From an uncultured Alphaproteobacteria bacterium (GTDB lineage: Bacteria > Pseudomonadota > Alphaproteobacteria > RF32 > CAG-239): a stretch of DNA of 64,000 nucleotides. A model generated the notes under the pieces. The model was given only the letters and a program-made list of their open reading frames with translations, was not told the DNA's origin and made no database searches. The translations under genes were made by a program, and so were the position numbers. The DNA is taken from assembly GCA_904501925.1 (NCBI GenBank), contig CAJGCO010000006.1, forward strand, positions 150 to 64,149, read 5' to 3'. This document shows, one piece after another, positions 18,201 through 21,918 of this stretch (its first letter is position 1; each line of letters starts with the position of its first letter).

Positions 18201-21063
18201 TGCTAGATTATTTGTTGCAGAAGGAGATGGGGCAACTGCTACAAATAAAGGTGAAATTACAGTAACTGGCAGTGGTATTGGAATAGATGTGTTAAAAGGT
18301 GGTAAGGTCAATGTGACTGGAAGTTCGGCAAAAATTACAGTTGATGGTGGAAATGCTATAGGTATACAATCTGCAGATGAGGGAACTTTGGTTAATGTTT
18401 TTGCTGGTGCTGTATTGGATATTAGTAATAAAGGAACAGGTATTTTAACTAAAGAATATTCAAAATCTGAGAACTATGGTACAATAAATGTTAATAGTGA
18501 AGGGGTTGGTATTAAGGTTGAAGATGGTACACCTTCTAAAGCTAGTAAGACGATAAATCATGGAACAATAAATGTGGTTGGTGCAACAACTAAAGGTATT
18601 GTTGCAAATCCTGGTACGGAAGTGGAGAATGTGGGGGATATCAATATTAGTTCGAACAAACTAAGTGGCAAAGATGATCCATCAAATTATGCAGTTGGTA
18701 TTTGGACTGAGGGGACAGTTAAGAATTATTCTGATGGTAATAGTAAAGGGTATATTGTTGTAGGTAATAATGCTATTGGTGTTTATACAAGTAAATTAAA
18801 TGTAATAAATGATACAGGTAGGGAATTGGATAATATTCCAGGTGGTATTACAGTTAACGGTAATAATGCTATTGGTGTTTGGGGTAGTCTTAAAAATGGT
18901 ACTAGTGGACTATTGAGTGTTGTTAATGGAATTGGAGTTAAAGGTTCTATTGATAATGAAGGAGAAGTGAATGTATCTGGTGGAACAGGTATTGTAGGTA
19001 GCGCTTTTAATAGTGGTCTTATTGAGATTACGAGTGATGGTGTTGGTATTGAAGGTAGAGTAGAGAATACGGGAGAGATTGATAGTCGTACATCTAATGA
19101 AAAAGGTGGATTATATATTACTCAAGCTAGTAGTAATAGTGGAACTATTGAGGGGTCAGGTACGATTATTAAAGTTGCTGATGGTGGGACTTTTAGAAAT
19201 GATAGTAAAATTGATACTAATAACGCTATAATACGTATAGAAGGAAATGGTAGTTTTAATAATCTTGGAGATGTAACTAATACAAAATTTGTTATTGATA
19301 ATCTAGGGAAATTAAATAATACAGGGCAAATAGTATCTGATTCTGGAACTGTTGCTGAGGTTTCAGGTACATTTGATAATAGTGGAAGTATTAGTGTTGG
19401 ATCTGGAACTGCAGTTGTTGTGAAAAATGGGGGGTATTTTAGTAATTCTGGAACAATTGAGGTTGCAACAGGTAGTGCAGTTAGAGTTGAATCTGGTGGT
19501 AATGGTATAAATAATTCTGAGATTGTTTTAGCAGGTTCTGGTACAGCTATAAGAGTTGAATCTGGTGGTAGTTTTACAAATGCTGGTACTATTTCTTATA
19601 ATAGTAAGGTTAATGGACATTGTTCTAGCGGAAGTATGACTAATAGTGGTGAATGTAAAGATGTTTCAGCTGAAGAAGAGGAAAAAGAAACAGAGAGCGT
19701 TAGATTTGATTTTGATGATTTGATTATGGTTGATGACAGTGCTGAGTTTGTAAATAAAGGAAATGTTGATTTAGATGGCGTTGATATGGACTTTGGAAAT
19801 TCAGATAAATATGTTATAGCTAAAGGTGGTACATATAAGGCAGATACGTTTAAGGGTGAGATTAAGGCAAGCTCTGATATTGTTATGGGTAGTTTTTATA
19901 ATATTTATACTAATAAGAACTCATTTGTTGGTAAAGATGAGGGAATTGTGGTTTCATCTGATTCATATATGTTTGATGCTAGTTTAGAGAAAAATGAGGA
20001 AGATAATGTTGATGTTAAATTAGAAAGAAAGTCTTTTGATGAATTATTAGAAGATAAAGAATTAGCAGATTTCTTTGAAACAAACTATGTATTAGAGAAT
20101 AATTTAGCGATGTATGATAGTTTGAAAAAAGCTAGTAATAAAAAAGAATTTAGTAATGTGACAAATCAAGAGACTGGTAAAGGATTTTATGCAAACTTGG
20201 CTCGTGAGAATATGGCTGTTATTAGAATATTAAATGATCAAAAGCAAAATGATGTATTAAATAATGGTGTTTTATATTCTGGTGTTGGTGCGAATTATTA
20301 TAGAACATCTAAGAATGGTGTGGATGGTTTGTCTGATTATGAAGACGATATATTTAGTGCAAATATTGGTACTGGAAAAGCACTTAGCAAGAATTTGAGT
20401 GTTGGGGCAAATTTAACAGGTGCGTTTGTTAAATCTAGTTATGGTGATGTTAATTCTGAGCGTGAAAACAAGATTATTATGGCATTCTTGCCAATTATGT
20501 ATAAGAACAATAATTATAAGCATGTTATGATGCCTAGTATGGGTGTTGGATTTGGTAGCTATGAGCGTAGTGCGCCATCTGGTAAGTATGATGCTGATAC
20601 ATTTGATATTTATTATGGTTTGTATAATCATTCTGAATATGATGTAGATTTGAAGGTTATGGAACTTGTTTTGGAAGCTGAATTAAATCTTCAAGGAATA
20701 TCATCTGATGATGCTGATGAAAATAATGGTTTAACATTGAAAGCAAATGATAGCTTATCTATGGAAGCTGGTATTGGTATTAAATTGAGAAAACAAATTG
20801 AATTGGCTAAAAATCGTTCTTTGATGTTGGCTATTGGTACAAAGTATTATCATGAATTTTTAGATCCTTATGAAGAATTAAAAGTTGGTATTAATAATTC
20901 TTACTTTACAAATAAAGGTTATGAAGAGGATAAGAACCGTTTAAAGACTACGGCTGAAGCGCTTTATAAAGATGGTGATTTAGCAATTTCAGCTCAGATT
21001 ACTCATAATAAAGAAAAAGAGAGTAATGTTGAAGGTGGAGTTGGTGTTCGATATAGCTTTTAA
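15229..21063 (+). CDS. Giant autotransporter-type surface protein with N-terminal ankyrin module
   Basis: 1944 aa. Contains an N-terminal signal-like segment, an ankyrin repeat (NGDTGLCIAIKRNNHVAFESFRRAGANV), and a Gly-rich hydrophobic segment. A long passenger follows with reiterated GxIxNxGxI beta-helix-like repeats. The C-terminal roughly 280 aa resemble a beta-barrel and end in ...GVGVRYSF. Confidence 0.85.
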   Translation: MNLKAKFLFFISFISVIGSADEGFCASRLTPQDFNRMYYIASLGRVDILRNAVNRGMNINTVNQNGDTGLCIAIKRNNHVAFESFRRAGANVKHPCTNKIRTQYAAFMGRQNSKQQIEANKKYKSLYYPEEENKLLPWVLGGLALGGGALAFSGGGGGYAPSGDNGENITPVVAGDGLGTLLINYKKSIIDGQGVNGLDIDVRNSLPQSNINSIQMIPNMLDNFSNLYSYAVAKNGAGYINKGILSLYDGTIGLSATGNQSNVTNNNKIDINSVNGSIGLVASNGSIASNGRDKNDSSTINITYKGTKAGAAVIGMYADTNSTIENYGTIFGSTVSIPVSNAGGKSGIGLLATEEVLEEEGTEEEETEEKEEEKPVINANSGTILGMGVFDFYTGTNFSSQVIRALNYGEINLSAGYNDSTDASVSLIGMGSFLDDNFLYGTSNPNFAEQMILNNMGDIKLSYQGKYLLADNALKLGDGGLIGIRADGSTDALNNGSINDALNNGSINIDLRATNLPQNIDVAAGMLSVHGADLTNNGEITILNAADSGGVTYGMVATTGDGSQTRVYKFKEPLVKNDGTINMHVSNSYGMASFAGGNVINNGTINLGIEKGDSKYTNNYGLYAAGTDKTREIELVNKGTINVNSINSVAIMNEFSGSVDLINDGVIYLSNKATNSKVFGGNFSKATNNSSIMYKVGNSESFSYPELSEISYPDGTVGYEDPIALTIKNAPVGSVVEIASDATKAKQTFDNNGNIVIGDEKKIDVDYGGTFGTAAVKVSNQGSAFNYGEIKLVKYEEDTDQYNTGLYLDSSATAESYVESYGLIDVDAHYSIGIRNDSVPGAVARNFGIINADGLYSVGMAATQVNATVSNGSYNNNANANINVNASGAAGFYLNNGKAYNYGTINLNTSGTRAFYVSGKKAQILEHGTIWYNRDVEDIIFYVVTNGASLEFDDLTANVDTYTFAKALTGAQGVGSVIWGANSKAYVSGANARLFVAEGDGATATNKGEITVTGSGIGIDVLKGGKVNVTGSSAKITVDGGNAIGIQSADEGTLVNVFAGAVLDISNKGTGILTKEYSKSENYGTINVNSEGVGIKVEDGTPSKASKTINHGTINVVGATTKGIVANPGTEVENVGDINISSNKLSGKDDPSNYAVGIWTEGTVKNYSDGNSKGYIVVGNNAIGVYTSKLNVINDTGRELDNIPGGITVNGNNAIGVWGSLKNGTSGLLSVVNGIGVKGSIDNEGEVNVSGGTGIVGSAFNSGLIEITSDGVGIEGRVENTGEIDSRTSNEKGGLYITQASSNSGTIEGSGTIIKVADGGTFRNDSKIDTNNAIIRIEGNGSFNNLGDVTNTKFVIDNLGKLNNTGQIVSDSGTVAEVSGTFDNSGSISVGSGTAVVVKNGGYFSNSGTIEVATGSAVRVESGGNGINNSEIVLAGSGTAIRVESGGSFTNAGTISYNSKVNGHCSSGSMTNSGECKDVSAEEEEKETESVRFDFDDLIMVDDSAEFVNKGNVDLDGVDMDFGNSDKYVIAKGGTYKADTFKGEIKASSDIVMGSFYNIYTNKNSFVGKDEGIVVSSDSYMFDASLEKNEEDNVDVKLERKSFDELLEDKELADFFETNYVLENNLAMYDSLKKASNKKEFSNVTNQETGKGFYANLARENMAVIRILNDQKQNDVLNNGVLYSGVGANYYRTSKNGVDGLSDYEDDIFSANIGTGKALSKNLSVGANLTGAFVKSSYGDVNSERENKIIMAFLPIMYKNNNYKHVMMPSMGVGFGSYERSAPSGKYDADTFDIYYGLYNHSEYDVDLKVMELVLEAELNLQGISSDDADENNGLTLKANDSLSMEAGIGIKLRKQIELAKNRSLMLAIGTKYYHEFLDPYEELKVGINNSYFTNKGYEEDKNRLKTTAEALYKDGDLAISAQITHNKEKESNVEGGVGVRYSF
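16699..16752 (+). repeat. Perfect 27-bp tandem duplication inside the autotransporter gene
   Basis: gatgcattaaataatggtagtataaat occurs twice back to back, in frame, giving DALNNGSIN twice. Confidence 0.95.
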
Positions 21064-21088: not shown

Positions 21089-21117
21089 ATGGTGCACGTA
21101 AGTGTGCCATTTTTTTG
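21089..21117 (+). terminator. Rho-independent terminator after the autotransporter gene
   Basis: 9-bp stem ATGGTGCAC/GTGTGCCAT (two G-U pairs), GTAA loop, then T7. Confidence 0.8.
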
Positions 21118-21393
21118 TTGGAATGGTGGGGAACGAAAAATGTTGCAAAAGGGGGGAAAATGTGATAGTATATAAGTGGTTATATATTGTTATGTATGTT
21201 GTTTTGATTATTTTTATGTTATTTTTCATAATTGATTGATGGGGTTTTTTCTTGTCTTTTGGTTAATGAATAATACGTATTTATAGTTGTTATTTCATAT
21301 GGCAATTTATAACTAAGTATAATATTAATCAAGAGGGAGTGGAACAGGCTTTCAAAGGAAAAGCTACCTCTTTAAAAACCACATTAGTAATTT
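21118..21393 (+). promoter_or_regulatory. Promoter-leader module, family 1, copy A
   Basis: -35 TTGCAA at 21143-21148, a 17-nt spacer containing G6 and TGn, and -10 TAGTAT at 21166-21171. The leader of about 220 nt is near-identical to copy B and conserved block-wise with copy C. The conserved 3' block GAGGGAGTGGAACAGG...GCTACCTCTTTAAAAACCACAT ends 9 nt before the ATG. Confidence 0.7.
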
Positions 21394-21918
21394 ATGAAAA
21401 AAATTTTAACAATGTTGTTGGTTGCTGCGATGATGAGTGTATGCGCAAGTGCTAACACCAACGCCAACACCGGTGAGCCAGTTACAGCGAAAGCAAATCC
21501 TGTTAAGGTTAATCTTAAAGGTAAAAGTTTGACCGTAAATGGAGAGACATTTGTTTTCAACCTCTCTGAAGAGGAAGATACAGCGGTGTTTCTTGATATA
21601 GCAAAAGCTACATGGGCGATTGTTATTCCTAAACCTGAAGGAACAAACTGGAAGGAGGATGGCGATTGGCTGCATATCTACAAGTACCAAGGACGCTATT
21701 GCTATAGTCTGCAGAAGACTTCATTTGAGTTTACCTCAAATAAGTACGAGGCTAAGCCGTATTATACGCGAAATTGGGACTTAGTTGAACATGTAGATTA
21801 CGCCGAATGGTGTGATCCTGCATTTGCTAAAGGCATGAATATCGGTTATGCTTACCTGGAAAAGGGAGACGGCAGATTTGTGCTTGTATATGGCAATGAG
21901 GCATCATACATCAAGTAG
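21394..21918 (+). CDS. Hypothetical lipoprotein
   Basis: Signal peptide with a lipobox (AAMMSVC). Visibly more GC-rich than the flanking genes. No Shine-Dalgarno site. No family was recognised. Confidence 0.6.
   Translation: MKKILTMLLVAAMMSVCASANTNANTGEPVTAKANPVKVNLKGKSLTVNGETFVFNLSEEEDTAVFLDIAKATWAIVIPKPEGTNWKEDGDWLHIYKYQGRYCYSLQKTSFEFTSNKYEAKPYYTRNWDLVEHVDYAEWCDPAFAKGMNIGYAYLEKGDGRFVLVYGNEASYIK

Follow-up and report, generated by a model that had tools for sequence, protein, structure and literature searches.

How do genes for small proteins that are unrelated, or only distantly related, come to carry the same noncoding DNA directly before their start codons? The question is raised by three cargo genes (A, B and C) in a 64,000-nucleotide stretch of the genome of an uncultured alphaproteobacterium, here called the window, each of which follows a leader of about 220 nucleotides (nt). 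An earlier reading, made without database searches (the sequence-only reading), had proposed that these leaders are better conserved than the genes they precede and act as a cis-regulatory RNA or contain a second promoter. Comparison of the window with related contigs, together with computed RNA folding, indicates that the leader is probably a new lineage-specific, multi-copy, cis-acting structured leader RNA family tied to hypervariable cassettes.

The three copies of promoter and leader end exactly at the ATGs at 21394, 27063 and 27932. Leaders A and B are identical at most positions (90.3%) and C has diverged from both (66.2% to A, 73.3% to B), as the sequence-only reading had described, and the motifs of the 3' block, AAGAGGAGTGGAACAGG and GCTACCTCTTTAAAAACCACAT, occur three times each in the window against 0.07 and 0.00 expected. 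Homology among the copies opens at a common sigma-70-type promoter, TTGCAA-N17 (with TGn)-TAnTAT, whose spacer holds a GGGG run, and closes at the ATG; the 100 nt upstream of the promoter align at chance level, as does the coding DNA except between B and C (49%). The repeat is therefore a promoter-plus-leader module and not a segmental duplication with neutral flanks. The promoter class has 5 matches in the window against 0.06 expected, of which two head genes at 49188 and 49875 that have a different leader. Each module is preceded by the terminator of the preceding gene (terminator scan: 21094-21107 and 27621-27646). The leader is about 216 nt long from a start site that is deduced from the -10 element and not mapped, and just 8-10% of its bases are C. 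From 5' to 3' it consists of a G·U-rich, C-poor rod of about 150 nt, an A/U-rich linker with UUAACC at its end, a small hairpin with a GAGG:CCUC base, an A-rich stretch of 15-21 nt and the AUG. A Shine-Dalgarno site is present in 19 of the 45 window genes and absent from the three cargo genes. The parts of the modules are as follows.

21094-21128 (+): terminator of the upstream autotransporter gene, with a hairpin at 21094-21107 and a T run; 5' limit of module A.
21143-21171 (+): promoter A, with -35 TTGCAA at 21143-21148, a 17-nt spacer containing GGGG and an extended -10, TGA-TAGTAT, at 21163-21171.
About 21176-21179 (+): predicted start site A, deduced from promoter A.
21373-21396 (+): A-rich spacer TTAAAAACCACATTAGTAATTT, then the start codon of cargo A, without a Shine-Dalgarno site.
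26813-26841 (+): promoter B, of the same class.
26842-27062 (+): leader B, with the rod at 26842-26985, segment 3 (defined below) at 26997-27008, the 3' hairpin at 27003-27042 and a spacer to the ATG at 27063.
27621-27656 (+): terminator of cargo B, with a hairpin at 27621-27646 and a T run; 5' limit of module C.
27681-27709 (+): promoter C, of the same class.
27710-27931 (+): leader C, with the rod at 27710-27862, capped by a GGAA tetraloop, segment 3 at 27866-27877, the 3' hairpin at 27872-27912 and a spacer to the ATG at 27932.

Relatives of the leader were reached solely via the cargo proteins and their contigs (L015-L023, L036-L053), which are syntenic with the window. These contigs gave 31 leader matches initially and further ones later, and the leaders of window and related contigs sort into six types.

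Type 1: A-like leaders, B included.
Type 2: the L039/L043 variant.
Type 3: the C type.
Type 4: the short type, with a compact 3' hairpin (L016 5650-5827, L021 706-884).
Types 5 and 6: partial leaders, from L023 and from L021 1-77 (L021p).

Across these types the first part of the leader keeps one RNA fold, which is described here for leader A.

21172-21320 (+): rod of leader A, a long imperfect hairpin of 57 pairs including 16 G·U; covariance-model match at 21172-21317, 121.8 bits.

The rod is the minimum-energy fold of the first ~150 nt in three leader types that are 64-73% identical, with 51-58 pairs and a G·U share of 28-43%. The fold is strand-specific and forms in the transcript sense only: folding energies on the plus strand were -34.7 kcal/mol (z-score -5.35) for leader A, -37.5 kcal/mol (z -4.41) for leader C and -36.2 kcal/mol (z -3.18) for the short type, against -5.5 (z -0.4), -11.0 (z -0.7) and -4.7 kcal/mol (z +0.7), respectively, on the minus strand. 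In a 16-sequence alignment, 98% of cells pair at the 40 pairs of the consensus rod, compared with 35-57% when the partners are slid; both partners have changed in four pairs and a single partner in 19, and none of 500 shuffles reached the observed values. A separate RNAalifold run returned the same rod. Its first pairs lie at 21172-21178, beside the predicted start site.

The second conserved structure lies shortly before the start codon.

21331-21372 (+): 3' hairpin of leader A, its base formed by AAGAGG (21331-21336) and CCTCTT (21367-21372), with the internal loop GAGTGGAACAG.
21348-21364 (+): top of this hairpin, with the stem GCTTT (21348-21352) and AAAGC (21360-21364) and the loop CAAAGGA.

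The pairing of AAGAGG with CCTCTT, which the earlier reading had considered possible, is real: a GAGG...CCUC hairpin is found in six leader types, its base invariant despite very different tops, and the short type and L021p keep it around much shorter ones. The top stem GCUUU/AAAGC becomes GCUAU/AUGGC in C and ACAUU/AAUGU in L023; three of the five pairs show compensatory change, and pairing is kept in 97% of cells. The minus strands of B and C do not retain this stem. Rod and 3' hairpin are the conserved core of the leader. Diverged types keep the rod pairs and the GAGG/CCUC hairpin and fold on the transcribed strand only, a pattern indicative of selection on the RNA itself. The proposal of a cis-acting RNA element is borne out in that the leader is structured and strand-specific, and is neither coding sequence nor a DNA palindrome.

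Three segments of the leader can exchange partners, and it is here that the fold departs from the one proposed earlier.

21222-21244 (+): segment 1, TTTTTCATAATTGATTGATGGGG, which forms the inner 5' arm of the rod and is also complementary to the start-codon region of the same leader (anti-TIR, TIR being the translation initiation region).
21255-21270 (+): segment 2, TCTTTTGGTTAATGAA, which contains TTGGTTAA; it pairs as the 3' arm with segment 1 in the rod, or alternatively with segment 3.
21325-21336 (+): segment 3, TTAATCAAGAGG, which pairs with segment 2 over 12 base pairs (bp) or, via AAGAGG, with CCTCTT of the 3' hairpin.

The sequence-only reading had paired TTGGTTAA (21259-21266, 26927-26934 and 27797-27804) with TTAACCAA (26997-27004 and 27866-27873) or, in A, with TTAATCAA (21325-21332). 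The motifs lie exactly where it placed them, but in the best-supported fold TTGGTTAA pairs with the upstream TTCATAATTGA and not with the downstream TTAACCAA. What survives of the proposed helix is a possible conformer in which segment 2 (UCUUUUGGUUAA) and UUAA(C/U)CAAGAGG form 12 bp in the A, B and C types, with one mismatch in the short type, three in L023 and no compensatory change; the inner hairpin GTTGT...ACAA, also proposed, belongs to this conformer. Neither the rod (segment 1:segment 2) nor the 3' hairpin can coexist with the segment 2:segment 3 helix. Only in the A/B types is this helix predicted to prevail at equilibrium (probability 0.89-1.0); the freed segment 1 (UUUUUCAUAA) then pairs with UUAUGAAAAA, two more helices form and 6-16% of the start region is unpaired. 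The rod (ON) state of these types lies only 0-6 kcal/mol above the energy minimum. The C and short types differ in that their ensemble is dominated by the rod (probability 0.93-0.99), with about 50% of the start region open. The duplex of segment 1 with its own start region has a computed energy of -21 to -22 kcal/mol in the A/B types (-21.7 in A), compared with -11 +/- 3.3-3.6 kcal/mol for control start regions of the window, of which at most one of 58-59 was as strong; in the C type the value is -17.4 kcal/mol and beats all 58 controls. When the growing transcript of the A/B types was folded stepwise, the rod held until nt 212-218 and then flipped to a fold with the AUG paired. From these computed ensembles we infer bistable translational control in the A/B-type leaders.

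As a whole, we slightly favour, at a little better than even confidence, an explanation in which the repeat is a self-contained expression module whose leader RNA acts in cis with stabilising and translational roles, and which also supplies recombination homology. It builds on the repeat, promoter motif, strand-specific fold, covariation and complementarities described above. The module would consist of a strong sigma-70-type promoter and a ~216-nt leader acting in cis as RNA, with the 5'-terminal rod as a shield that keeps both Rho and 5'-end-dependent decay away from the long untranslated leader. The rate of translation would be set by the leader through competing pairings. In the ON state, segment 1 would pair with segment 2 (rod) and AAGAGG with CCUCUU (3' hairpin), leaving the start region free; in the OFF state of the A/B types, segment 2 (UCUUUUGGUUAA) would take segment 3 and release segment 1 (UUUUUCAUAAUUGAUUGAUGG), which would pair with CCACAUUAGU...UUAUGAAAAA and bury the AUG. 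The rod would form first during transcription and the OFF state would become the energy minimum only once the start region had been made, so that expression would be a race between ribosome loading (or a putative rod-holding factor) and refolding. The ~260-bp module would double as homology for duplicating, deleting and swapping hypervariable cargo. A more far-reaching version, which is possible but which we doubt, is that of a self-contained bistable riboregulator: a five-segment relay (segments 1, 2 and 3, CCUCUU and the start region) would gate Shine-Dalgarno-independent translation by a co-transcriptional race or by a ligand or protein reading the rod, would co-ordinate hypervariable secreted and FHA-domain proteins and would offer portable homology for new cargo.

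Several observations weigh against the explanation that we favour. The covariance model has an effective sequence number of 1.68, the flanking genes of the relatives are 88-98% identical, and perhaps four or five independent leader types underlie the covariation; the covariation tests are low in power because all relatives belong to one close lineage, and the structure tested was derived from the very sequences used for the test. U/A-rich sequence of this kind yields complementarity easily. The 3' hairpin alone is no stabler than shuffled sequence (z -0.1 to -0.9) and its support is consequently comparative, not thermodynamic, and pairing alone does not explain the invariant GAGG/CCUC base and the invariant CCUCUUUAAAAACCACAU tail. 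With respect to the switch, the complementarity of segment 1 to the start region is not significant in the short type, in which 11 of 59 controls are equally strong, and the OFF conformer is not conserved, being less stable than the rod by about 4 kcal/mol in the C type and by about 16 in the short type; L023 disrupts the segment 2:segment 3 helix without compensation. Predicted accessibility of the start region is equal at 25, 37 and 42 °C. The start site is only predicted, as are the stabilising role and the switch with its kinetics, and all energetics are computed.

Recombination between modules is indicated by the comparison of strains, for which the cargo genes have to be considered.

21394-21918 (+): cargo A, 174 amino acids, with a signal- or lipoprotein-like N terminus and no Pfam family; lineage-restricted.
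27063-27587 (+): cargo B, 174 amino acids, with a small beta-barrel at the N terminus and an FHA domain at the C terminus.
27932-28450 (+): cargo C, 172 amino acids, an FHA-domain paralogue of B (38% identity).

As the sequence-only reading had stated, cargo A is unrelated to B (BLASTP E 1.2) and to C, and B and C are distant paralogues with 38% amino acid identity. Both cargo families are limited to this lineage: among 5.8 billion proteins, cargo clusters numbered 10 for A and 13 for the FHA type. The confident structure model of the FHA cargo (predicted local distance difference test score 91) combines a small SH3/CPH-like barrel with the FHA domain and the cargo A model is beta-rich; neither cargo type gave an informative PDB match with its predicted structure. 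Identity to the syntenic contig L016 is 88-98% for flanking genes, 89.5% for leader B, 68% for cargo B and 65.5% for cargo C; between strains the leader is thus at background conservation and the cargo is hypervariable. The earlier claim that the leader is better conserved than the genes it precedes holds among paralogues, but for a different reason: it is the cargo that varies unusually between strains, the leader staying level with the flanking genes, and leaders also pass from locus to locus. The number of cassettes differs among strains, L037 having two of A type and L038 a single FHA cassette, and in L040 and L044 a second leader is located after the cargo. The B-locus leader of L019 shows 7 differences to the A-locus leader of its own genome and 30 to the B-locus leader of the window, and scaffolds of related assemblies are interrupted within leaders. 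It follows that leaders are exchanged from one locus to another and provide homology for recombination. Runs of N also lie within leaders of this family (L038, about 8500-8590; L047, 4256-4355). Copy numbers in draft genomes are probably underestimated because assemblers collapse on the leader repeat.

The strain comparison also bears on a rival account, namely that the repeat is a passive expression and recombination module, a 5' untranslated region travelling with a strong promoter, in which likeness reflects recent copying and gene conversion that drive cassette turnover and the rod is at most a generic stabiliser without a switch. Leaders no better conserved between strains than the flanking genes, alongside cargo at 65-68%, would follow from it, as would the variable cassette number and the mosaic differences between leader copies, which neither a grouping by locus nor one by genome fits, and the C and short types are predicted to remain in the rod state. 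We nevertheless judge this account unlikely, since types at 64-73% identity keep 98% of the rod pairs with compensatory changes among them, the GAGG/CCUC hairpin is kept beneath tops of differing length, the fold exists on the transcribed strand only and the A, B and C types show unusual complementarity between segment 1 and their own start region. A separate small RNA of the Brt kind known from Bartonella is improbable: most transcripts would stop, or be processed, short of the cargo, the ~200-nt RNA would have its targets in trans, for instance through its anti-Shine-Dalgarno-like CCUCUU, and the cargo would need read-through. Although the layout resembles Brt1-9 (alphaproteobacterial, multi-copy, about 200 nt, with the best-conserved 3' end, directly upstream of small genes; PMC5387305), the invariant single-stranded CCUCUUUAAAAACCACAU is a possible seed and the cargo has no Shine-Dalgarno site, the terminator scan found no internal terminator-like site in leaders A, B and C, locating sites only between modules (21094, 27621), and the real terminators of this genome are canonical. 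The weak 3' hairpin is trailed by UUUAAAAA, or by GUAAA in the short type, and not by a U tract, and the cargo has no promoter of its own, the leader ending 0 nt from the ATG.

Quite improbable is a riboswitch-like element in which a metabolite or an RNA-binding protein selects the fold by binding to the rod or, in the 3' hairpin, to the conserved loops (GUGGAACAG, CAAAGGA). An unbranched rod (0 branch points in the covariance model) without a multi-helix junction would be an atypical aptamer, the conserved loops are absent in the short type and the GGA of one is lost in L040, the cargo genes are not metabolic and the element occurs in one lineage only; these points stand against conservation of the loops in sequence while the stems covary, and against the two near-isoenergetic, mutually exclusive conformers of the A/B types. 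No known class matches, so that it would be a new class. The sequence-only reading had also considered a second, proximal promoter of the extracytoplasmic function (ECF) type, GGAAC-N17-18-CTACC, within the 3' block, which would give a short leader. GGAAC is conserved in most long-type leaders and matches the -35 element of alphaproteobacterial EcfG-type promoters. The promoter is very improbable, and in effect ruled out because its variable spacer is the covarying stem of the 3' hairpin: the spacer changes are compensatory in three of five pairs, as in an RNA stem and not a promoter spacer, and the top stem is lost on the minus strand in B and C. GGAAC-N15-18-CGTT occurs in none of the three leaders, which lack the CGTT -10 and read GCTACC after the spacer; GGAAC is missing here from the short type and L021p, which keep the GAGG/CCUC hairpin, and reads GGAAA in L039A and L043A. 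Least credible of all is a role at the DNA level, with TTAACCAA, inverted at segments 2 and 3, as a CtrA-type half-site pair (TTAACCAT) or the site of another DNA-binding protein. CtrA is encoded in the window (13291-14013(-); 388 bits against the CtrA equivalog) and TTAACCAA is one base off the Caulobacter CtrA half site. Yet TTAACCAW is not enriched in the window (19 found against 13.5 expected), the leaders contain no full TTAA-N7-TTAAC, the positions (about +85 and +150) lie far downstream of the promoter, A-type leaders read TTAATCAA, and strand asymmetry and G·U pairs point to RNA.

Several narrower candidates were tried and rejected. The frame of a leader-peptide attenuator or type I toxin (MYVVLIIF...) is not conserved and is shifted by a 2-nt indel between A and B; candidate leader peptides differ by type (MYVVLIIF..., MIRSF..., MCV), and the conserved ATG is CTG in L019. 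A GUG-initiated upstream open reading frame in the 3' hairpin is in frame in L039 but not in A, and meets a stop in B. A sigma-54 reading of TGGAAC-N-TTTCA fails, as judged by eye, for want of the critical GC and of conservation. CsrA-type GGA sites are absent in the short type and the GGA is lost in L040; to our knowledge, alphaproteobacteria usually lack CsrA. An intrinsic terminator or attenuator would need a G+C-rich stem and a U tract, which are missing inside the leader. A MITE/REP-like palindrome (Correia, ERIC) is contradicted by the lack of a significant minus-strand fold and by the single orientation of all copies at a fixed distance from promoter and ATG, and an RNA thermometer (ROSE/fourU) by the lack of a Shine-Dalgarno site near the AUG and by the unchanged computed accessibility at the three temperatures.

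Parts of the proposed module have counterparts in known systems. The ompA-type 5' stem-loop is a 5'-terminal hairpin that stabilises mRNA, and here too a strongly transcribed gene has a long leader whose predicted 5' end is only a few nt from a hairpin; the present rod differs in that its 150 nt and >50 pairs go far beyond what end protection needs and in that sequence blocks are conserved. ROSE and fourU thermometers of alphaproteobacteria are likewise multi-copy structured 5' untranslated regions before paralogous small genes, with weak A-U and G·U helices. Unlike them, the leader has no Rfam match, its 3' hairpin holds neither the start codon nor a used Shine-Dalgarno site, and accessibility is flat over 25-42 °C. 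Conserved 5' regions of variable surface-protein genes, usually including the signal peptide, are known as the upstream homology box (UHB) of Borrelia and from the Mycoplasma vsp/vlp genes. These resemble the module in that a conserved promoter and 5' region is common to divergent or unrelated hypervariable genes and provides recombination homology; theirs acts at the DNA and promoter level, whereas the present module stops at the ATG and carries a selected RNA fold.

Cis-inhibitory long-range pairing to the start region is known from the rpoS leader, from the fold-back inhibition of hok mRNA and from the leader of the MS2 maturation gene. The aapA3 mRNA of Helicobacter pylori is similar in that an upstream leader segment pairs with the start region and alternative or metastable co-transcriptional folds gate ribosome loading (PMC6733600). 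All four hide a functional Shine-Dalgarno site, whereas here there is none, the sole Shine-Dalgarno-like sequence (AAGAGGAG) lying about 55 nt upstream within a hairpin; in addition, the switch is predicted for the A/B types only, and no antisense or small RNA partner is known here. In overall layout the element resembles Brt1-9 of Bartonella henselae, multi-copy structured RNAs of ~200 nt associated with Trp modules, whose copies are 74-100% identical (PMC5387305). Both are alphaproteobacterial and lineage-specific, lie directly upstream of small protein genes, have their best-conserved part at the 3' end and are clustered where duplication is active, a resemblance that concerns the layout only. 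Brt cargo is an XRE-type DNA-binding protein and the present cargo is FHA-domain or secreted and lipoprotein-like; Brt transcripts appear to end before the cargo (PMC5387305), whereas no terminator is visible here.

With respect to its distribution, the leader element is confined to one narrow lineage that has rarely been sampled so far. The leader had been described earlier as matching no riboswitch class, which agrees with the absence of any Rfam 15 family at the gathering threshold; permissive Rfam searches with the three leaders gave chance-level matches only (E >= 0.27; 9-27 bits against thresholds of 45-122). The covariance-model search suggested by the earlier reading was run on the whole window with filters off, using a model of the leader's rod, and found the three copies only, at 121 bits each, with the next match at 20.7 bits. 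Exact-pattern scans for the 3' block gave 14 matches in GTDB representative genomes and 12 in JGI metagenomes, all at chance, and none in viral contigs, and module A had no blastn match among plasmids and phages. The sole match in the window at the Rfam gathering threshold is a 6S RNA gene (11814-11972 (-), 46.8 bits). The window has a G+C content of 32.9% and encodes, besides CtrA, an anaerobic ribonucleotide reductase, LptD/F and, as judged from the translation, a TolB-like protein. This gene content and the low G+C point to an anaerobic low-GC alphaproteobacterium. Module A adjoins an autotransporter gene upstream (15229-21063, 1944 amino acids), which has BigA-type domains according to the annotation of relatives and an N-terminal region that is ankyrin-like by eye, and two small ankyrin-repeat membrane proteins are encoded at 31791-32870.

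The window also contains a second module family, which has the same promoter class (TTGCAAATGGGG...TGTGATAGTAT) and a different leader of 230-270 nt (49174-49490 and 49861-50130). Its cargo (49489-49797 and 50131-50592) consists of two small secreted Gly/Ser-rich paralogues, and its leader holds a conserved open reading frame of 63-75 codons (MVMMMC...; 49244-49471 and 49931-50122) and no rod-like fold (z about -2 on both strands). Just after a malQ-like gene, tandem 57-nt repeats (GGGGGCGnGCTAAAGC...) lie at 48972-49028 and 49066-49122, and a terminator-like hairpin comes after each of them. They have no Rfam match and may represent two small RNA genes. Other repeats are five copies of a 33-nt periodic repeat inside a Band7/SPFH gene (25474-25658 (-)), where they encode a repeated AEGQKEA-like motif, and two 57-nt direct repeats with 74% identity that follow glgB in intergenic DNA (35377-35433 and 35490-35546).

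If the favoured explanation is true, the leader represents a family of structured leader RNAs not described before, from an alphaproteobacterial lineage that is uncultured, anaerobic and low in GC; the practical reach of this is limited because the element is so far confined to that single narrow lineage. A G·U-dependent, strand-specific rod of 150 nt combined with a start region lacking a Shine-Dalgarno site leads to testable predictions for folding and translation. The cargo proteins are likely host- or envelope-interaction factors, and one compact module would impose a common post-transcriptional control on unrelated, fast-evolving small proteins of this kind while serving as a recombination handle by which they are duplicated, deleted or swapped.

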